Part shown: one piece after another, positions 1-7,370 of the stretch
Numbering within the stretch: position 1 is the first letter of the stretch
Layout: the number at the start of each line of letters is the position of its first letter
Virus record (IMG/VR): IMGVR_UViG_2681813313_000015
Span: 1-7,370 of that record
Strand: one strand, 5' to 3'
Length of the DNA stretch: 7,370 bases
Source: a virus
Taxonomy: Duplodnaviria > Heunggongvirae > Uroviricota > Caudoviricetes
Notes under the pieces: model-generated
What the model was told of the DNA's origin: nothing
The model's input: the letters and a program-made list of their open reading frames with translations, nothing else
Database searches by the model: none
Program-made: the position numbers and the translations under genes

Positions 1-1020
1 CTACTTGCTAACCACGAGCGGCAGATCCAGTGTTGGTGTGATTTTTGTTTTACGATCGTAAATCAACACCTGATTTTCTGTTTTATGCCCGCTGAAAATT
101 TGTTTGTCGCGACTGCTGCCTTCGTAATCTGAGATCCCCTTAGCTTTTATGTCGTGAAAATTGCACCCGAACGGAACGCCAACTTTTTGCTCGGCTGAGC
201 GTTTAGCCTGATTCCACCAGTTGTTCAGCGTTTTAGCTATGACTTTCCCGCCTTTGGTTGTATTGATCACATATTCGCATGTACAGGAAGATACATTTCG
301 GGCTAACTGGATCGCTGTACGTAATCGCGGTGACCATTCCTTGATTTGTTTGGTGCCGGTTTTGTTTTGCTCAATGTAGATCCCTTTATCCATAATATCC
401 TGCCATTTCAACTCAAGCACATCACCGAGCCTTGCCGCACAGAGATAGGAAATCTCCATTGCAATGCGTAACTGTGGAATTGCTTCCGCATATATCGCTG
501 CATACTGTTCATCGGTGATGTAAACAGTGCGGGCTTTAAGAGAGAATTTTCTGACTCCTTTACATGGGTTATTCTTCACGTATCCACGCTCATATCCCCA
601 CCCGTATACTCGACTCAGGCTTGCCAGTTCATGATTTGCCTGGGTCTTGCTCTCAAGCCCTCGTTTATCCATGAAAATTCTTACCTGCTCAGTTTTGACA
701 TTATCAGCAAGCACTTTTCCGAATACCATCAGCAACGCCTTCTGATGTTGTCGATAATCTTTTTGGGTTCGGGGGGCCAGTTCTGTAAATGCAGGGGAGT
801 CTATAAACATGTGCCATAATTTAGCTACGGTCATTATGTTGTGGAGTTTTGCTTTTTCCAGTTCATAATTTTGCCAGACTTTAGCTACGCTGGTTTTCCG
901 CACTCTTCCTAGCCCTATAGTTCTTGTACTTCCTTCTGGTTTCCACACGTAACTGTAACCATTCGATCTAACCCGCGGTGGCAGTACATTATCTTTTTTA
1001 TTTTTTCTTGGTCTTCCCAT
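1..1020 (-). CDS. int: Phage integrase, tyrosine recombinase (lambda Int family)
   Basis: 339-aa ORF. N-terminus MGRPRK..LPPRVRSNGYSYVW..GLGR resembles the lambda Int arm-binding region. Catalytic region aligns by eye to lambda Int: AARLGD (R212), EQNKTG (K235), FHDIK (H308-x-x-R311 position), SGHK (H333), LIYDRK (Y342). Stop codon at 1-3. Confidence 0.9.
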   Translation of the reverse strand: MGRPRKNKKDNVLPPRVRSNGYSYVWKPEGSTRTIGLGRVRKTSVAKVWQNYELEKAKLHNIMTVAKLWHMFIDSPAFTELAPRTQKDYRQHQKALLMVFGKVLADNVKTEQVRIFMDKRGLESKTQANHELASLSRVYGWGYERGYVKNNPCKGVRKFSLKARTVYITDEQYAAIYAEAIPQLRIAMEISYLCAARLGDVLELKWQDIMDKGIYIEQNKTGTKQIKEWSPRLRTAIQLARNVSSCTCEYVINTTKGGKVIAKTLNNWWNQAKRSAEQKVGVPFGCNFHDIKAKGISDYEGSSRDKQIFSGHKTENQVLIYDRKTKITPTLDLPLVVSK

Positions 1021-1240
1021 TATTCAGCGCCTCAAAATCGGGTTCAGCAGAAACCAGTTCAGATGTTTTTGGCATCGTTGTCAGTCCGTGTGGAATATCC
1101 CTGCGTAGAACTATTGGTTCGTTTTTAGGACCGATTACAAATGGGATGCCGTGCAGTCTTAACTGGTGTTGCTGTTTTGTGTATCGCTCGTATTTCGTGA
1201 TCTCTTTAATCTCTGCTGGAGATAGAGTTAATTCGTACAT
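998..1240 (-). CDS. xis: Excisionase-like protein (Xis)
   Basis: 80-aa ORF immediately upstream of int and overlapping its start by 23 nt, the classic xis-int arrangement. The N-terminus MYELTL and basic C-terminus NGKTKKK resemble lambda Xis (MYLTLQEW...NGKKAKS). Only a weak AAGG is present upstream. Confidence 0.6.
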   Translation of the reverse strand: MYELTLSPAEIKEITKYERYTKQQHQLRLHGIPFVIGPKNEPIVLRRDIPHGLTTMPKTSELVSAEPDFEALNNGKTKKK

Positions 1241-1307
1241 GTGGTCACGTGCCTTTACAGCATGACCGCCGCCACTGTAGCTGGTGGGCGGCGATATGGG
1301 TTGAACA

Positions 1308-3782
1308 TTAAAAATCAGCCTGACTCGGGATCAGTTTTTGCCAGATAGCTGAAACGTATTTTGCCTGATAACGGGCGTCATCAAGTGCATTATGGCGCTC
1401 ACCTTCGAATGGGATAGCAGTTCTGGCATCGAAGTCTATGGCTTTCCCCAGCTCAACGATTGTGCGTACATCGCGATCGTTGTAGTAACGCCACGGGCAG
1501 GGGATCCCCTGCCGTTCGTATGAACGGCGCAAAATCGTGTTGTCGAAGTTGGCTCCATTTCCCCAGACCTGAACAAAAAATTCACCGGAGTTTTCGTCGA
1601 TAAATTCCCGCAATTGTAACAGTGCATCATCTAACGGGATTTCATCGGTCATAATGGCAGACTGCGCTTCACGTGATTGCTTCAGCCACCTTTTAATGAC
1701 GTCACGATCAATGACTCCGCCAGCAGTTTCCAGATCGATAGTCTTACTAAATTCCGGTCCCATATCTCCGGTTTGCGGATCGAAAAATATTGCACCTATT
1801 GAGATAATCGGGGCATCCGGATTTTTTCCCATGGTTTTAAGGTCGATCATTAGATGGTCACACGTCCTGCTGGTGGATGTGATAACGTGATGACCGTTCA
1901 CCGTAATTAAGGGATCTGCCGTCTCGCCAGTTTCACTATCGCTGGCGTGGTCCTGAGCGCTGCCAGCATTCTCCTTGTGTGGATGTTCAGCGCCTTCCAT
2001 TTTCTCCGAATCGTCTTCCTGAACTTCAACCTGGTTCTTGTCATCGAATGTTTCCTGGTATGTTGCGTCGCCCATCACCGCGCCACAATCAGGGCAGTTG
2101 CCGCCGCCGGTCTGACCGCAGGCGGTGCAGATTTTTTCCGGTTCCTGTTGCGCTACTGGTTCAGGTTGTTTCGTTTCTGGCTCGTTTTGTAACGCATTTG
2201 GGCTGTTTTGTTCCGCTTTCTGGCCGTTCTGTTCCGTTTCTTGCTGGTTCTGATTCACTGAATCGCGGGTTTCAATCCCCTTCACCCATTTCGGATCATT
2301 CGGGTCGCTAATCCCTGCAACAAATTCACCACGTGATACAGCAAGCAACTTATTGGCGTCAGGCTGGCTGATATTGGCTGCCTGCATAATTTTGTTTACT
2401 TCGTCAGCGGTAACTTTTACCGGCTCTGGTTGTGCGATCGTGTCAGATGCACCAGTATTTTGTTGTGAACCTGAGTACGTGCCGTTTTTACGTGCGAAGT
2501 ATTCCTCTTTTGTGATTTCCGTAGCTCCCAGGGCCAGTGCTTTTTCCAGACCAGAAAGTTTGTTTGCGCGACCGTATTTTTCGCCGTCCTTATCAGTGAA
2601 AAGGAAGTAGAACGGTCCCTCACGCTCTACAGATGGTTCGTCTTCCACTTCGCATTCGGTTTTTTCGTTGTCCGGCATTGCCGTTTCCACTGCATCAGTT
2701 TCTGGTACTGGTGACGGGAGAGTACCAGCTGTGCCCTGATTTGTTCCTTCGTCATCTTCAAACACGCCCTTGGTAGTCAGGTATTCAGTGATGTATTTGT
2801 TCAGTGCTACGGGATCTTTGTGAATGTCGATCGGACGCTCACGGACAAGGCCAAAAATAGTCTGACGGTCGTAGCGAACGGCATCGGGTTGTTTGCGCAT
2901 TGATGCGGAAATGTGCTTCCAGTCTTCGCGATCTTTGTCGATAACTTCATTTTTTGCCCAGCGATGGATGCTGCCGTCAATGTTTCCGGTATCAATATCG
3001 CCAGGCCAGAGAGCGTAGGCCAGTTCTTCATCCAGCGTTTTCCATGTCTGCTTGTATTCGCGACAAATGGCGGCAGTGACTGGGTTGATTTTTCCTGCTG
3101 AGTTTTCAGTGTTCTGTTGATTGACTCTGGCGCTGGCGAGATCAACAACAGACGTGTATTTTCCAGTCTCTTTGCGCTCTGCGTCCTGCCGTTTTTTCCA
3201 GTTACGTAATTCAGCCTGAATTTCGGGCCATTTGGCACCCGGATTACATTTGTGTTTAACCCATCCGATAGCGAACAGTTTGCGTTCCGGATACATAGCG
3301 TTAATTTCAGGCGTTTTCATCAGTGCTTCAACGATATGCCCGTCAAAGGTAGCAACGTCTTCCTGCAGTAATTCCTGCGCGTCAATCGCCATATCAACGG
3401 TGATGTTTTCACATGTACCGAACTTAACCAGGACCGCGTTCTGTACTTCAAGGGACAGCTTGTCAAAATTGACGTTCATCGGATCGGATTCTGGTTCGAC
3501 CGGAATAAAGGAAGCGGATTCCTCATCCCAGCGGTTTTCCTGCATATATTCAGCATCCCAGGAATCGAGGGCAGGGCGGGGTATACCGGGTTTATCCTCG
3601 CAAACAAGAAATTTATAAGCGCAGTCCTGAGCAGCCGGATAATGTTCCAGGAATTGCCAGTGAAATTTTGCGCGGGCGCGACGTTCATCACCGGCTTCAA
3701 TGGCAGTGGCTACAGCGACGGCACCTTCTTCCTTTATTGCCTGTTCATCAGGAATAGCAGCGCAAATAAAGACCTTACTCAT
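1308..3782 (-). CDS. Large multidomain prophage exonuclease (exodeoxyribonuclease VIII/RecE-like annotation family) with C-terminal DEDDh-type 3'-5' exonuclease domain and an internal zinc ribbon
   Basis: 824-aa uninterrupted ORF with ATG at 3780-3782 and GAGG about 10 nt upstream. C-terminal ~190 aa (nt ~1311-1892) carries DnaQ-like motifs: MIDLKTMG...IISIGAI, TIDLETAGG, GNGANFD, HNALDDA. Zinc ribbon C552-x2-C555-x6-C562-x2-C565 at nt 2088-2129. Central region LLAVSRGEFVAGISDPNDPKWVKGI is recalled as typical of ExoVIII-annotated prophage proteins; that recollection is unverified. Confidence 0.8.
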   Translation of the reverse strand: MSKVFICAAIPDEQAIKEEGAVAVATAIEAGDERRARAKFHWQFLEHYPAAQDCAYKFLVCEDKPGIPRPALDSWDAEYMQENRWDEESASFIPVEPESDPMNVNFDKLSLEVQNAVLVKFGTCENITVDMAIDAQELLQEDVATFDGHIVEALMKTPEINAMYPERKLFAIGWVKHKCNPGAKWPEIQAELRNWKKRQDAERKETGKYTSVVDLASARVNQQNTENSAGKINPVTAAICREYKQTWKTLDEELAYALWPGDIDTGNIDGSIHRWAKNEVIDKDREDWKHISASMRKQPDAVRYDRQTIFGLVRERPIDIHKDPVALNKYITEYLTTKGVFEDDEGTNQGTAGTLPSPVPETDAVETAMPDNEKTECEVEDEPSVEREGPFYFLFTDKDGEKYGRANKLSGLEKALALGATEITKEEYFARKNGTYSGSQQNTGASDTIAQPEPVKVTADEVNKIMQAANISQPDANKLLAVSRGEFVAGISDPNDPKWVKGIETRDSVNQNQQETEQNGQKAEQNSPNALQNEPETKQPEPVAQQEPEKICTACGQTGGGNCPDCGAVMGDATYQETFDDKNQVEVQEDDSEKMEGAEHPHKENAGSAQDHASDSETGETADPLITVNGHHVITSTSRTCDHLMIDLKTMGKNPDAPIISIGAIFFDPQTGDMGPEFSKTIDLETAGGVIDRDVIKRWLKQSREAQSAIMTDEIPLDDALLQLREFIDENSGEFFVQVWGNGANFDNTILRRSYERQGIPCPWRYYNDRDVRTIVELGKAIDFDARTAIPFEGERHNALDDARYQAKYVSAIWQKLIPSQADF

Positions 3783-3868
3783 TTTGTTTTAACCTCATTA
3801 CAGATTTCAGGGTGAACGAATCCCTGCCATTGCTGGCATTTTTAATCCGTTGGTATGGTGTTAATATG

Positions 3869-3888
3869 GCTGGAGGGTTATCCAGCCG
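3869..3888. other. Perfect 7-bp stem hairpin GGCTGGA-gggtta-TCCAGCC overlapping the stop codon of the 62-aa gene, upstream of the exonuclease gene
   Basis: Direct reading. A T-rich run (GGTGTTTCGTTATT) follows on the plus strand only. Role unknown. Confidence 0.4.
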
Positions 3889-4066
3889 GTGTTTCGTTAT
3901 TCAGGTACAGCGATACTTTTTTTACCGGGAGGCATTCACCAGAAATTTTTTGCTCGTCTCTTGCCTGGAGGCAGGATTCTTTACTGGCATAAATTCTGGT
4001 AATCACATTCTGTGATTCACCCGTTATAAGAAAAACCGTCATCATCAGTGCAAATGCTGAAGTCAT
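3878..4066 (-). CDS. Hypothetical small protein with hydrophobic N-terminal segment (possible membrane or secreted peptide)
   Basis: 62-aa ORF. Its ATG overlaps the stop of the upstream gene (ATGA on the minus strand at 4063-4066). SD-like GGAG lies 7 nt upstream. N-terminus MTSAFALMMTVFLITG is hydrophobic; two Cys residues. Function unknown. Confidence 0.5.
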   Translation of the reverse strand: MTSAFALMMTVFLITGESQNVITRIYASKESCLQARDEQKISGECLPVKKVSLYLNNETPAG

Positions 4067-4251
4067 TGACGTTCTCCGAAAATACCAAGTTCAAGAAGAG
4101 CAATTCGGGAAAGTATGGAATTATCATTGAGCAGATAAGGCTCATATTTCCTCATATTAATGGCATCTTCAGTAAACTCCCGGTTACTGAGCAGAACACC
4201 AATATCAAAACAACCTTCAGACGTATTAACGTTTGGTAATAACGTTTCCAT
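4063..4251 (-). CDS. Hypothetical protein (62 aa from ATG at 4251; a GTG-initiated 97-aa form would extend to 4356)
   Basis: The ATG at 4249-4251 is preceded by GAGGA with 7-nt spacing. The stop overlaps the start of the next gene (ATGA), indicating translational coupling. No recognisable motif. Confidence 0.5.
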   Translation of the reverse strand: METLLPNVNTSEGCFDIGVLLSNREFTEDAINMRKYEPYLLNDNSILSRIALLELGIFGERQ

Positions 4252-4283
4252 TATCGCGTCCTCAACAATGAATTTTGTGATGC

Positions 4284-4327
4284 GGTGCCTGGTGCCTCCA
4301 GGTGACGTTAACCAGTTAACAATTAAC
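4284..4327. repeat. Short tandem repeats: GGTGCCT x2 (4284-4297) and three TTAAC units (4308-4312, 4316-4320, 4323-4327)
   Basis: Direct reading. Lies upstream of the ATG at 4251, inside the GTG-extended form of that ORF. Confidence 0.5.
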
Positions 4328-4503
4328 GCCGGATACAGAGAATCCACCCATAACACTGTTTTTGGTTTTAACTGTTCCGCGTGCGCTCAGCCGCATTCAC
4401 CGCATCACAAAATTCACTTTAAAAACGGCGGCAGAGCAGTCACGGAGTAAAACTGATACCGCCAAACGTCACCAGAAAATTGATAACAGAGGGCGTTGCA
4501 GCG

Positions 4504-4540
4504 GGGTTGTCACTTAAGCGTATGGTCAACCTGACAACCC
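4504..4540. repeat. Perfect 9-bp inverted repeat GGGTTGTCA-N19-TGACAACCC in noncoding DNA
   Basis: Direct reading of the sequence. Not followed by a T-tract on either strand, so it is not a canonical terminator. Confidence 0.6.
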
Positions 4541-4754
4541 GGTGTCCTCAACGGGGGAAGGAATAACCCCGCCATACTTACCGCCGCGCCATTTCGCGGG
4601 TTGCCACAACCGGAAGCGCACGGTCGAATTAAATTTAACGACACCGTACAGTGAGACGAACTTCGCCGTGCGCTTTCGTGTTGTGTGCCTGCTTTTAACC
4701 ACGTCAGGCGAGGTGGTATCCTTCTTATCCCGAATAACCAAGAAGGAAATCTAT

Positions 4755-4955
4755 ATGACTAAAGAAGAATTTGTCTCTTATATTTTTGATAAAACGGTTG
4801 AAATGTATGCCGCTACTTACGGGTCCTGTAATCCTCTGAATAAACCAGAGGGGAAAGATGATTTCGACAAAATTTACCGCTTCTTGGAGGACCGCTATAT
4901 CAAAAGGTTAGAGGACGCAGGGATCAAATCCCCAGTGAAGTCACCATTGTCCTGA
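4755..4955 (+). CDS. Hypothetical 66-aa protein, moron-like gene convergent to the early-left operon
   Basis: ATG at 4755 preceded by AAGGA (4743-4747) with 7-nt spacing. AT-rich composition. The in-frame upstream extension (from GTG at 4542) has no RBS. Its 3' end overlaps the convergent minus-strand gene by 32 nt. Confidence 0.5.
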   Translation: MTKEEFVSYIFDKTVEMYAATYGSCNPLNKPEGKDDFDKIYRFLEDRYIKRLEDAGIKSPVKSPLS

Positions 4956-5289
4956 GAACTTGCAGGACGTCATGATCGTAACTTCCATCCAAACCGCGAC
5001 GGCAAATTGCTTCTCGTATTACCGGAAGCAGTTCGCTGGAAATCTCGGTGCATATTTCACCTGATAATACGCTTGGCTCAAGTGAGAATATTGGTGAACT
5101 TACGGTCTTGGTCTCGACAGTTTCAGAGTCAGTGCCAACATTATAAAGCTCAACGAAAGCGGTCTTGATTTTCCGGGCCAGATCTTTTGCTGGCTCGCTT
5201 GCAATATCTTTCCCGATTTCTCGCAGCACAGAATGCAATGTATGAGCTGCTGTTTTCTGTACATCAGACGGTAAATCTTTAAATTCCAT
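4924..5289 (-). CDS. Hypothetical mildly acidic protein (121 aa from ATG at 5289; alternative ATG at 5301 gives 125 aa)
   Basis: The ATG at 5287-5289 is preceded by GAGG with 6-nt spacing. The alternative ATG at 5299-5301 overlaps the upstream stop (TGATG). Second gene of a coupled pair downstream of the putative PL/OL. No recognisable motif. Confidence 0.55.
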   Translation of the reverse strand: MEFKDLPSDVQKTAAHTLHSVLREIGKDIASEPAKDLARKIKTAFVELYNVGTDSETVETKTVSSPIFSLEPSVLSGEICTEISSELLPVIREAICRRGLDGSYDHDVLQVLRTMVTSLGI

Positions 5290-5300
5290 CGTCAGCCTCA

Positions 5301-5453
5301 TCAGTCAGTGTTTCTGGCTAACCAGCAACGCGCGCCAGATCCGGTTTTAAACGTTTTGCTTTTGGTATATGTCATCGCGGTGAACGTACCGCCCTGGTTG
5401 GGGAACACGCCGTACACCAGAGATTCGTTGTTGCCAAGATCGATAGTATCCAT
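5301..5453 (-). CDS. Hypothetical small protein (50 aa from ATG at 5453; the track's 81-aa form starting at 5546 is probably not translated)
   Basis: The ATG at 5451-5453 is preceded by GAGGT with 4-5-nt spacing. The upstream ATG at 5546 lies inside the operator and promoter spacer and has no SD. Confidence 0.4.
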   Translation of the reverse strand: MDTIDLGNNESLVYGVFPNQGGTFTAMTYTKSKTFKTGSGARCWLARNTD

Positions 5454-5530
5454 GTTGACCTCATTTCCCCTTAACGCCGGGGTAGCGGAACTGTTTGCTG
5501 AGAACACCGTGCGGTGTCTTGATGGATCGT

Positions 5531-5582
5531 AATTTAGTTTTCTCATGAATATTGGTCAAGTACTTTTAATGAGAAAACTCAA
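5531..5582 (-). promoter_or_regulatory. OL/PL-like operator pair and leftward early promoter
   Basis: Two inverted copies of the operator motif (5534-5546 as the complement of ATGAGAAAACTAA; 5569-5582 ATGAGAAAACTCAA) flank a 22-bp spacer. On the minus strand: -35 TTGACC (5559-5554), 17-bp spacer, -10 TAAATT (5536-5531). Confidence 0.55.
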
Positions 5583-5587
5583 TATTT

Positions 5588-5627
5588 AATGCAAAATAAA
5601 GCCAATACATTGAAATGTAAGGCTTTA
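5588..5627 (-). terminator. Putative intrinsic terminator downstream of the repressor gene
   Basis: Interrupted hairpin (outer stem TAAAGCC/GGCTTTA at 5597-5603 and 5621-5627; inner stem TACAT/ATGTA) followed on the minus strand by UUUUGCAUU. The stem is AT-rich, so it is weak. Confidence 0.35.
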
Positions 5628-5644
5628 AAATTTGTGAAGGGGGG

Positions 5645-6052
5645 TTATTGATGTTTGTTACGTTTGCGAGCTTCTAGTAGCTCGGTGAATAGGCGATTAA
5701 AATTCTCAACGCGGGCACGGAGTTCGCTGATTTGTGCTTGCTGCTCTGATTTTGGAAGTGCGCGATACAATCGCAACATCTCCAACTCATCTTCCGATAA
5801 GTCTAAGGCGCTGTTGAGTGCAACTGGTGGATCTGGTGTTTTATCCTCGTCACCAAACAGTATCCAAGTTGGTGAACATTGCAATACCTCAGCCAGGCGA
5901 TGCAAATTTTGCCCGCGCGGGGCTGTATGGTCGCTTTCCCATAGTGAAATTGATGAGCCAGATACGCCAGCAGCTTTGCTTAAATCGTTTTGACTTAAAC
6001 CAACCTGTTTGCGTCTTTCTCTAATTCGTTGACCTAAAGTTTTCTCGTTCAT
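5645..6052 (-). CDS. Prophage immunity repressor, XRE/cI-type HTH, without an S24 peptidase domain (RacR-like)
   Basis: 135-aa ORF. N-terminal HTH_3-type motif (GQRIRERRKQVGLSQNDLSKAAGVSGSSISLWE). Divergent from a Cro-like gene across a 77-bp region carrying palindromic operators. No Ala-Gly/Ser-Lys autocleavage module was seen. Confidence 0.85.
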   Translation of the reverse strand: MNEKTLGQRIRERRKQVGLSQNDLSKAAGVSGSSISLWESDHTAPRGQNLHRLAEVLQCSPTWILFGDEDKTPDPPVALNSALDLSEDELEMLRLYRALPKSEQQAQISELRARVENFNRLFTELLEARKRNKHQ

Positions 6053-6073
6053 ATTTAGATATCTTAATAACCC

Positions 6074-6116
6074 TTGACTTGAGATTCCTTGAGTGATTAC
6101 TATTGAGAAAACTCAA
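6074..6116. promoter_or_regulatory. OR-like divergent promoter/operator region between repressor and cro-like gene
   Basis: Palindrome TTGAGAAAACTCAA at 6103-6116, extra TTGAG half-sites at 6079-6083 and 6089-6093, and -35-like TTGACT at 6074-6079. No clean -10 could be placed. Confidence 0.6.
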
Positions 6117-6129
6117 CTTTGGAGGGGTG

Positions 6130-6357
6130 ATGTTTAAATCAGACGTAATTAATTTTTATGGGACGAAAGCCAAAGTAGCGAAAGCTGCTGGTGTTGATCC
6201 ATCTGCTGTTTCTCAATGGGGGGAACTGGTTCCTGAAGGTCGCGCGATGCGCCTGCAAGAGGCATCCGGCGGGGAACTTCAGTACGACCCCAAAGTTTAT
6301 GACGAATATCGTAAGGCAAAGCGGGCGGGGCGGTTGAACAATGAAAATCACCCCTGA
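6130..6357 (+). CDS. Cro/YdaS-like small HTH regulator
   Basis: 75 aa from ATG at 6130 with GGAGG 4 nt upstream. Contains the motif FYGTKAKVAKAAGVDPSAVSQW typical of Cro/YdaS-like proteins. The track's TTG start at 6103 would place the first codons inside the operator palindrome. Confidence 0.8.
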   Translation: MFKSDVINFYGTKAKVAKAAGVDPSAVSQWGELVPEGRAMRLQEASGGELQYDPKVYDEYRKAKRAGRLNNENHP

Positions 6358-6892
6358 ACAGGTTTGTGAGGCTCTGGATGCCTGGGTATGCCGACCAGGA
6401 ATGACACAGGAGCAGGCGACGATATTAATCACGGAAGCATTCTGGGCTCTGAAAGAACGCCCGAACATCGATGTTCAACGCGTCACGTTTAATGATGGCG
6501 AGGTTGATCAACGGGCGCTGGGCGTTAACCGGGTGAAGATATTCGAACGCTGGAAAGCTATCGACACCAGGGATAAGCGGAAAAAATTCACGGCGCTGAT
6601 TCCGGCAATTATGGAGGCTATCCGAATTAGTGATTTCAGGCTGTATCGTGAGATCAGTGATGGAAAAAGCATTACGTACATGATCGCCGGATTAAACAAA
6701 GAATATGGCGATGTGGTGGAGTCCGGGCTGCTTTTTGCGGATCCAGCTGTTGTGGAACGTGAGACTGACGAGCTTATAGAAAAAGCTATTGCTTTCAAGC
6801 ATGCGTATCGTCAGCAATATCAATATTACTTTGCAGATAAACAAATGTCTGCCAGGGGTTCGTATGAGTATCGATGCACTACGATGGGCTAA
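6341..6892 (+). CDS. cII-like/YdaT-family protein
   Basis: 183-aa ORF overlapping the cro-like stop by 17 nt. The position (third gene of a repressor-Cro-cII-like trio) and the segment IFERWKAIDTRDKRKKFTALIPAIMEAI resemble Rac YdaT as recalled; the family assignment is unverified. Confidence 0.65.
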   Translation: MKITPEQVCEALDAWVCRPGMTQEQATILITEAFWALKERPNIDVQRVTFNDGEVDQRALGVNRVKIFERWKAIDTRDKRKKFTALIPAIMEAIRISDFRLYREISDGKSITYMIAGLNKEYGDVVESGLLFADPAVVERETDELIEKAIAFKHAYRQQYQYYFADKQMSARGSYEYRCTTMG

Positions 6893-7370
6893 AAAGGTGA
6901 AAACCGGCAGTTCATCCAGTAAGTCAGTATTGACCTGGCTTGCTGATATGTGCGGTGCCGATTTGTGTGCATACCCGTCTGTATCTGCCCTGGCAGAAGT
7001 AACGGAACTGAACAAAAAGACAGTGCAGGACAGCTTACGACACCTGATGGAGATTGGGTTAATTGTTGATACCGGTGAGAGAAAAGGCAGAACAAAGCAA
7101 ATTGTGGTGTACCGACTTATCGGTGTAGAAGAAAGTGTTGCCGAACCTGAATACACCCAAAAACGGGAGTCTTTAAAGGTGGGTAAAATTGGTGCTGTTA
7201 ATAAAAACAGTACCGAAAATGGTTATGTTTCAGCACAAAACAGACCCAAAAACGGAACTCTTAGCTGCATGAACCGCCCCGGGTTTCCTGGAGAGTGTTT
7301 TATCTGTGAACTCAGGCTGCCAGATCATCGTTTCCGATGGAAGCATAATAAGCTTTTTCTGCTTCTGCCG
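6864..7370 (+). CDS. Phage replication initiation protein, N-terminal HTH domain (lambda O-like role); 3'-truncated by the window end
   Basis: Read by hand: ATG at 6864 preceded by AGGGG (5-nt spacing), 169 codons with no stop to position 7370. N-terminus MSIDALRWAKKVK...LADMCGADLCAYPSVSALAEVTELNKKTVQDSLRHLMEIGLIV is typical of HTH replication initiators. Absent from the ORF track, presumably because it has no stop in the window. Confidence 0.75.
   Translation, partial: MSIDALRWAKKVKTGSSSSKSVLTWLADMCGADLCAYPSVSALAEVTELNKKTVQDSLRHLMEIGLIVDTGERKGRTKQIVVYRLIGVEESVAEPEYTQKRESLKVGKIGAVNKNSTENGYVSAQNRPKNGTLSCMNRPGFPGECFICELRLPDHRFRWKHNKLFLLLP
7155..7258. repeat. Iteron-like direct repeats CCCAAAAACGG inside the replication gene
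   Basis: Exact 11-mer at 7156-7166 and 7245-7255, with a degenerate copy CCGAAAATGG at 7213-7222. The copies fall in different codon phases of the ORF. Confidence 0.35.

Follow-up and report, generated by a model that had tools for sequence, protein, structure and literature searches.

A conserved convergent gene pair in the variable slot behind ydfA of a dicBF-type prophage operon

Work on the dicBF operon of the Qin prophage of Escherichia coli K-12 goes back to the 1980s and has been concerned with DicF and DicB. In K-12, ydfABC-dicF-dicB-ydfD(E) is transcribed as a polycistronic RNA from one promoter 5' of ydfA, for which repression by DicA was demonstrated (PMC10448788). DicF is released from this RNA by processing, and ydfA, ydfB and ydfC are stated to be of unknown function (PMC5069750, PMC10448788, PMC9438474). 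Two further described systems are the prophage exclusion protein SieB (PMC10883804) and BstA, whose gene lies downstream of the cI repressor and which comes with cognate self-immunity (PMC8585504). Here, we analyzed a related locus in a window of 7,370 nucleotides (nt) of a virus of the Caudoviricetes (IMG/VR record IMGVR_UViG_2681813313_000015, positions 1 to 7,370). A first-pass annotation had described, at positions 4924-5453, a two-gene operon. The two genes, ORF1 and ORF2, are near certain to be cistrons 1 and 2 of a dicBF-type early-left operon, presumably DicA-repressed, of a Qin-like lambdoid E. coli prophage. Thus they do not form an operon of their own, but are the promoter-proximal cistrons of a longer dicBF operon, which continues on this strand with DicF, dicB and a ydfD-like gene. 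A third gene, p66 (66 amino acids, aa), had been missed. It runs convergent to ORF2 on the plus strand (4755-4955) and overlaps the 3' end of ORF2 by 32 base pairs (bp). Judged from sequence comparison, the evolutionarily stable unit is the C-terminal domain of ORF2 together with the convergent, 3'-overlapping p66.

Every tested feature of the dicBF operon is present at the locus except ydfB and ydfC. As in K-12 Qin, where the operon is under DicA/DicC control, a DicA-type repressor and a Cro/DicC-type gene divergent from the operon are found, the promoter region and ydfA share 91% DNA identity, and DicF, dicB, a ydfD-like gene and an exonuclease gene follow in the same order. The gene order of K-12 Qin is collinear (dicA, ydfA, ydfB, ydfC, dicF, dicB, ydfD, exonuclease remnant). 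DNA homology to K-12 Qin covers 3016-4696 and 5310-5524, the latter corresponding to the K-12 segment upstream of and including ydfA (dicBp-ydfA), and is broken over 4697-5309. In contrast to K-12, ydfB and ydfC are missing as second and third cistrons. The protein encoded by ORF2, p121, has no similarity to YdfB or YdfC, and ORF2 sits in the variable slot that holds these two genes in K-12, as part of a cassette with antisense p66. The window prophage also differs from K-12 Qin in retaining an intact exonuclease gene, xis and int. We are nearly certain of the transcription order: PL (the early-left promoter) with its operators, leader, ydfA, p121, a long leader, DicF small RNA, dicB, ydfD-like gene, exonuclease, xis and int.

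ORF1 is the first cistron (5301-5453, minus strand; ATG 5453-5451, TGA 5303-5301) and encodes 50 aa. The Shine-Dalgarno sequence GAGGT, which had been noted before, is located 4 nt 5' of the ATG. The product is a YdfA homologue, 88% identical to K-12 YdfA, and matches Pfam PF07151 (DUF1391) with 86.7 bits against a cut-off of 27.3 (E 8e-25, profile positions 1-47 of 48). All 196 homologues of ORF1 belong to PF07151. It is therefore a member of a known and named, uncharacterised family (YdfA/YdaF). The ratio of nonsynonymous to synonymous substitution rates (dN/dS, omega) was 0.09-0.16 against the Qin and Rac copies, indicating strong purifying selection. A ydfA-like sequence (a query match that covers mostly the ydfA part) is present in 3874 of 5426 complete E. 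coli genomes (~71%), often in multiple copies. AlphaFold2 predicted three antiparallel strands and a C-terminal helix with a predicted local distance difference test (pLDDT) score of 90.8. For this confident fold no known relative was found in sequence and fold searches of the PDB. A PDB profile search revealed a resemblance of YdfA to phage 21 SHP/gpD, a head decoration protein, over 19 residues (E 0.04), which is too weak to use. Phage records H3, H4 and H7 carry the label "head-DNA stabilization protein D" under the ydfA match (5301-5453). This label looks like an annotation artefact and probably stems from the 19-residue resemblance to phage 21 gpD.

ORF2 follows on the minus strand (4924-5289; ATG 5289-5287, stop 4926-4924). 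It encodes the 121 aa of p121, and the calculated isoelectric point (pI) of 4.99 agrees with the mildly acidic protein described initially. The start context had been described only partly correctly. An alternative in-frame ATG at 5301 indeed overlaps the ORF1 stop codon as TGATG and would yield 125 aa, but the GAGG sequence (5299-5296) lies in the 11-nt spacer behind the ORF1 stop and not inside ORF1. Translation of ydfA and p121 is probably coupled through the short spacer between them, which has a conserved TGATGAGGCTGACGATG junction. In an E. coli chromosome with 100% identity, the RefSeq calls for ORF1 (WP_000379582.1) and ORF2 (WP_024165664.1) have the very same coordinates. Based on these calls, the DUF1391 match of ORF1, an end-to-end match of p121 to PHROG 33007 (E 1e-81) and the dN/dS values (0.41 for p121 against an 82%-identical Enterobacter copy), both ORFs are genuine genes and not chance ORFs.

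We find p121 to be composed of two modules. The N-domain comprises residues 1-50 (5140-5289, minus strand), residues 51-74 form an acidic linker, and the C-domain consists of the 47 residues 75-121 (4924-5067, minus strand). A profile search with the N-domain among 1.84 billion representatives returned 95 clusters, nearly all of them sharing residues 1-50 only. Many of these proteins are stand-alone N-domains of 50-65 aa, in others the N-domain is extended at its C-terminus by unrelated sequences of up to ~160 aa. Likewise, residues 1-55 of p121 are also common to PHROGs 9419, 1363, 2151 and 6937, which differ in length. The shared motif reads M-x-F-x-[DE]-L-P-x-x-[VI]-Q-x-[IT]-A-A-x-x-L ... 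E-P-A-K-x-L-A-x-x-[VI]-[KR]-x-A-F-x-x-L-Y. In the AlphaFold2 model of p121 the N-domain is a predicted helical hairpin (pLDDT ~80), and linker and C-terminal helices are of low confidence. The N-domain has no Pfam family, and the larger C-terminal domains fused to it in other proteins had no Pfam match.

The C-domain recurs in other proteins (P0035, P0104, L089, L093 and L090) at 36-59% identity. In L089 and L093, two metagenomic prophages, it is fused to an unrelated N-terminus in a 129-aa protein, and in Cedecea it is a stand-alone ORF of 53 aa. We considered that the N-terminus of the 129-aa protein might be a diverged N-domain; this was rejected with an hhalign probability of 0.2. We also considered that the variable C-terminus of p121 is a meaningless read-through tail that arose from cassette insertion. 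This idea was rejected because of the conservation of the C-domain at 36-59% identity, its stand-alone occurrence and its omega of 0.11-0.35. It is near certain that ORF2 is a modular fusion of a widespread helical-hairpin N-domain and a 47-aa C-domain.

The convergent gene p66 (RefSeq WP_000159335.1) matches PHROG 34441 over its full length and shows a dN/dS of 0.11-0.26. Its family is narrow, with 19 clusters down to 54% identity. Every p66 homologue examined is convergent on a C-domain gene, with a 3' overlap of 29-56 bp. The pair was found in five backgrounds, namely E. coli Qin-like prophages, a Salmonella Rac-like prophage, Enterobacter (with an S24-type repressor), L089/L093 with their different N-terminal fusion of the C-domain, and Cedecea, where the stand-alone C-domain/p66 pair lies between cro and a cII-like gene. 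In all five, an early promoter lies near the C-domain gene, with this gene in sense and p66 in antisense orientation to it. Within the IMG/VR set described below, all 25 loci with a p121-type gene also had p66, as against none of 29 loci with other C-terminal classes. C-domain and p66 are both under purifying selection at saturating dS (omega 0.11-0.35). A Hafnia locus (P0005) was evaluated as a natural case of p121 without p66 and was rejected, since a Mu-like element is inserted there. In Hafnia paralvei (L096, 3586-6417) a Mu-like transposable phage (HTH_35, Mu transposase) lies in the 3' end of the p121 homologue; both genes are truncated by it, and p66 is destroyed. This locus was the one apparent exception to the linkage.

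DNA comparison further revealed that p121, p66 and the region upstream of p66 form a mobile cassette (4668-5309) that replaces ydfB-ydfC of K-12. The replaced stretch relative to K-12 comprises 613 bp (4697-5309). Positions 4668-5289, which hold p121, p66 and 87 bp upstream of p66, are 88% identical to an Enterobacter prophage in which the repressor (S24 type) and the downstream genes differ. Upstream of p66, the sequence GGTG(G/A)TA(T/C)CCTT is invariant in the five otherwise diverged backgrounds. It contains a conserved TGGTATCCT element resembling an extended -10 element (4714-4722, plus strand; 32 nt 5' of the p66 start codon), and this element is a candidate promoter of p66.

The conserved unit thus contrasts with the pair that had been proposed, ydfA and p121. 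We selected 80 IMG/VR loci as the closest YdfA matches. In 59 of these, the gene immediately behind ydfA is an N-domain gene, joined by the junction TGATGAGGCTGACGATG; in 18 it is a YdfB-like gene, and three have nothing there. The N-domain genes at this position belong to at least five unrelated C-terminal classes. The whole segment occurs in only 371 of the 5426 E. coli genomes, versus 3874 with ydfA-like sequence. In K-12 Qin, ydfA is followed by ydfB and ydfC. Further contexts of N-domain genes were reached by exact-protein look-ups. Enterobacter and Serratia prophages whose repressors are of other types have the N-domain gene directly behind the early promoter and lack ydfA. In a Salmonella Rac-like prophage the gene ahead of p121 is a ydfB homologue, with the same TGATGAGGCTGACGATG junction, and in Stx phage P13374 an N-domain homologue is located far down the PL operon beside ead/Ea22 genes. 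Thus, in these comparisons ydfA and p121 are near certain to be often neighbours in E. coli, yet separable, and this separability speaks against a dedicated two-component system. A translationally coupled ydfA-p121 module with an exclusion, anti-defence or regulatory function would explain the 11-nt spacer, the conserved junction and the frequency of the arrangement in E. coli-type loci. However, either gene is found in several lineages that lack the other, which largely refutes the module as well as the conservation of the pair as a unit, the same junction is used behind ydfB in Salmonella, and the part of the second gene that co-varies tracks p66 and not ydfA. Such a module is very unlikely.

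The slot behind ydfA is highly mosaic. With at least five C-terminal classes of the second gene and ydfB-type genes, it is the accessory-gene hotspot that had been suspected from its position. Small antisense ORFs abut or overlap the 3' ends of the other gene-2 classes as well (for example 73, 92, 68, 61, ~160 and 77 aa). They were located at 4329-4550 in L076, 4526-4843 in L072, 4492-4758 in L055, 4308-4595 and 4608-5225 in L040, 2740-3342 in L037, 4942-5175 in L081, 4269-4514 in L084 and 4395-4715 in L058. Most are full-length members of PHROG families labelled as of unknown function, and a Pfam search with ten of the other antisense ORFs of the slot gave no match. Several have a common MEDKM start and upstream sequence. 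The antisense ORF of L058 has the appearance of a multi-pass membrane protein, and two others are coiled-coil plus zinc-ribbon proteins (PHROG 1244).

A comparable arrangement is known from the Rac prophage (racR - ydaG - ydaF / sieB - kilR). In both prophages a DUF1391 gene lies near a repressor-controlled promoter and an antisense gene overlaps the 3' end of the gene it faces. In K-12 Rac (L094, 7955-8595) sieB, annotated as a superinfection exclusion B family protein, is antisense to the DUF1391 gene ydaF with a 4-bp 3' overlap, and thereby has the position and orientation of p66. The Salmonella Rac-like prophage carries p121 and p66 in the exact position of sieB, upstream of kilR. Based on these two observations, the antisense genes are likely lysogen-expressed cargo, and their position lends support to the hotspot idea. 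In contrast to the window, ydaG precedes the DUF1391 gene in Rac and an N-domain gene is absent. The antisense p66 of the window is a soluble protein of 66 aa with no SieB similarity or family match.

The mosaic slot could also be read in another way. ydfA, p121 and p66 may be independent, non-essential accessory genes (morons, anti-defence or host-modulating genes) in a recombination hotspot, and p66 and the C-domain may travel together merely through their 3' overlap. The many gene-2 classes, the occurrence of N-domain proteins alone and at other positions, and the PHROG labels, which give unknown function for all families, would agree with such a view. On the other hand, the overlap measures merely 29-56 bp, yet both full ORFs are under purifying selection past a dS of 1. 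The pair was also kept through three different 5' fusions of the C-domain, and the sense and antisense orientations relative to the early promoter were kept after a move into the PR (early-right promoter) operon. An absence of any coupling is therefore considered unlikely.

As an explanation that joins the C-domain and p66, we propose the following sequence of events. In the lysogen PL would be shut, and p66 would be made from its own weak promoter and serve the prophage as an accessory protein for exclusion or defence. Upon induction or infection, PL (PR in one lineage) would fire through the cassette, and convergent transcription and antisense RNA would silence p66. The promoter-proximal C-domain protein would be made at the same time and may bind or neutralise p66. 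In this way the resident phage could escape its own lysogenic function, by a logic as in sieB/esc or BstA/aba. This specific mechanism, in which p66 is a lysogen-expressed exclusion or defence accessory protein that is escaped via an early C-domain partner, is tentative and we would rather doubt than assert it. Taken together with the operon and structure conclusions, which are near certain, the explanation as a whole has about an even chance of being right. For YdfA and the N-domain, the most likely role is that of small early accessory factors that bind proteins and are independent of the C-domain/p66 pair.

The analogy with SieB-Esc (P22 and lambda) and BstA-aba (BTP1) concerns location and proposed logic. 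Like these systems, the pair lies beside a prophage repressor and an early-left promoter, and it may combine a lysogen function with a linked element that exempts the resident phage. Esc is reported to have been described as a SieB-linked self-exemption element by Ranade and Poteete in 1993. The strict co-inheritance of C-domain and p66 in five backgrounds fits the idea of a linked cognate element. Whereas Esc is an internal translation product and aba a DNA element, the immunity factor proposed here would be a separate convergent protein, and there is no sequence or domain relationship.

Several observations weigh against this explanation. Overlapping genes are often co-inherited for purely physical reasons, and linkage alone is therefore no proof of a functional or physical interaction. 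In addition, the IMG/VR frequencies are biased because the loci were chosen by their closeness to YdfA. A consensus promoter scan did not call the -10-like element, and the p66 promoter is proposed from the conserved motif only. Unlike SieB, p66 is soluble and mildly acidic and has no transmembrane segments. The model of p121 is weak overall (pLDDT 60.6). No homology or fold match in Pfam, NCBIfam, PADLOC or the PDB assigns a biochemical activity to YdfA, p121 or p66, and PADLOC finds no defence family.

ORF2 and p66 had no match in Pfam, NCBIfam or PADLOC, and ORF1 matched DUF1391 only. Hence, the earlier statement that neither protein has a recognisable motif applies as far as characterised homologues are concerned (Pfam, NCBIfam, PADLOC, PDB sequence and fold), but does not hold for ORF1, which is YdfA/DUF1391. 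Besides the YdfA-gpD similarity, PDB profile searches with YdfA, the N-domain, p121 and p66 returned designed repeat proteins and chance matches only. Matches of ORF1, ORF2 or p66 to archaeal-histone, AbiEi and Zn-ribbon profiles were dismissed, as they were far under the cut-off. The grand average of hydropathy (GRAVY) is negative for all three proteins (-0.47 for ORF1, -0.04 for ORF2 and -0.68 for p66), and no family match to RexAB- or SieB-type proteins was found for them in Pfam, NCBIfam or PADLOC.

The same architecture can be read with reverse polarity. The C-domain or p121 would then be an early effector, possibly toxic to the host or serving host takeover, and p66 the antidote that protects the lysogen from leaky PL or PR product. 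Upon induction, convergent transcription would shut p66 off and release the effector, similar to a protein antitoxin against a lytic-phase toxin. The convergent arrangement in five backgrounds and the constant closeness of the C-domain gene to an early promoter are expected in this case too. Moreover, the operon neighbours DicF, DicB and YdfD are known to be toxic (PMC5069750, PMC10448788), which makes protection against leakiness plausible. Against this stands that no toxin or antitoxin family was matched in Pfam and PADLOC, and that classical type II pairs are co-directional. The present evidence does not separate this polarity from the explanation given above, in which p66 is the lysogen function. 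We judge the reverse polarity improbable. Membership in the classical toxin-antitoxin types was rejected. A type II system does not agree with the missing toxin-antitoxin domain match, the position of ydfA and p121 within a longer operon and the convergence of p121 and p66. A type I system with a 3'-overlapping antisense gene does not agree with the hydrophilic character of p66 (GRAVY -0.68), nor with both partners being coding and under purifying selection.

Directly upstream of ydfA, a sequence scan revealed a PL-like promoter of the dicBp type with flanking operator inverted repeats (5531-5583, minus strand). The promoter-like site has a -35 sequence TTGACC at 5559 and, after a 17-nt spacer, a -10 sequence TAAATT whose last base is at 5531. 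Inverted repeats of 18 nt flank the site (5532-5549 and 5566-5583). The core of these operator-like repeats, TGAGAAAACT, was found again in the cI/cro divergent region at 6038-6049 and 6104-6116. We therefore place a putative repressor-controlled promoter directly 5' of ydfA, and the described position of the genes behind a PL/OL-like control region is borne out. Between the early-left promoter and the first cistron lies a 25-nt leader motif, GTTCCGC-N(2-6)-CNGCGTTAANGGG (5467-5491, minus strand). Of 95 fetched loci, 85 contain it once, among them Qin, Rac and Serratia prophages lacking ydfA. The motif is kept although the surrounding promoters and operators differ (for example L002 3146-3170, L094 8750-8773 and L084 3894-3918). 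It matched no Rfam family.

The position behind PL is that of lambda N and P22 gp24, and an N-like function of YdfA or p121 was evaluated. As antiterminator or early regulator, either protein could allow transcription to pass the DicF terminator and reach dicB, exo, xis and int. The first place after PL, the lack of an N homologue in the operon and the conserved leader motif, which could serve as a cis site, would be consistent with this. The likeness to the known antiterminators is one of position only, however, and there is no homology. Neither protein contains an arginine-rich stretch, as had been noted at the outset, YdfA is compact and folded (pLDDT 90.8) in contrast to the disordered N proteins, and p121 is acidic (pI 4.99). 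On these three grounds membership in the lambda N type was rejected. A pairing like that of nutL and nutR, with boxA and a boxB hairpin, was also looked at. The window holds one copy of the leader motif, a copy on the PR side was not found, and the folding energy of the PL leader RNA was no better than that of shuffled sequence (z = -0.35). Furthermore, K-12 makes read-through transcripts without any known factor (PMC10448788). An antiterminator role is highly improbable.

The remaining genes of the window agree with a dicBF-type operon. A repressor of the DicA family (135 aa, C2/cI-type helix-turn-helix; 5645-6052, minus strand; Pfam HTH_3 at 1.2e-16) is 56% identical to K-12 DicA over its full length, with 128 aa compared. 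Divergent from it are a P22-Cro-type gene (Pfam P22_Cro, 1.4e-17) and a cII/YdaT-like gene. On the minus strand downstream of p121, DicF small RNA was identified at 4426-4477 as a full-length match to Rfam RF00039 (72.5 bits, gathering score 48, E 5.6e-15), followed by dicB (62 aa, 4063-4251; Pfam DicB at 2.8e-36 and RefSeq annotation). The mechanical dicB ORF has 97 aa from a GTG (4063-4356, minus strand); Pfam and RefSeq put the true start at 4251. The DicF-dicB spacer and the dicB start (4219-4428, minus strand) matched the small RNA family STnc100 of Rfam, but below threshold (39.8 bits against a gathering score of 47). A ydfD-like DUF1482 gene (3878-4066, minus strand; Pfam PF07358 at 1.7e-14) has the position of ydfD in K-12. 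Next on this strand is the exonuclease gene (824 aa, 1308-3782; RefSeq exonuclease) with a C-terminal Rv2179c-like 3'-5' exoribonuclease domain (Pfam, 8.5e-62). The N-terminal part of this protein is long, acidic and of low complexity, and K-12 Qin keeps only a fragment of the homologue. An excisionase-like gene and then the integrase gene follow downstream on the minus strand. The insertion site of the prophage in E. coli adjoins yccA. Beyond the window, the right arm of the same prophage (L003, 13397-17272) carries a DUF5677 gene, a degraded integrase gene and an AAA ATPase and HNH endonuclease pair that resembles a defence-type module; behind these come hokD and rem.

The gene ydfA is a named E. 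coli gene and therefore not a discovery in itself, although it is uncharacterised; for ORF2 and p66 the only catalogue entries are PHROG families of unknown function. Neither the operon nor ydfA is out of the ordinary. The lead worth following is given by the conserved convergent pair and the hotspot of antisense cargo. Three abundant families to which no function is assigned are flagged by this analysis: DUF1391, the N-domain family and p66. The value of the locus lies in a mosaic cargo slot, in which unrelated small antisense genes stand opposite the variable C-terminal extensions of one early-gene family, and in a C-domain/p66 pair that has been held together through at least five phage backgrounds. 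Speculatively, and with little confidence, p66 and the C-domain might constitute a new two-protein prophage module of a lysogen anti-phage or exclusion factor and its immediate-early protein antidote, with convergent transcription switching between the two. The N-domain would then be a general carrier of cognate antidote domains, each with its own antisense gene, and the ydfA-dicF interval would be a large unexplored hotspot of matched antidote/antisense pairs. The C-domain/p66 pair itself offers a cheaply testable lead to how prophages combine lysogen-expressed functions with escape in the lytic phase.

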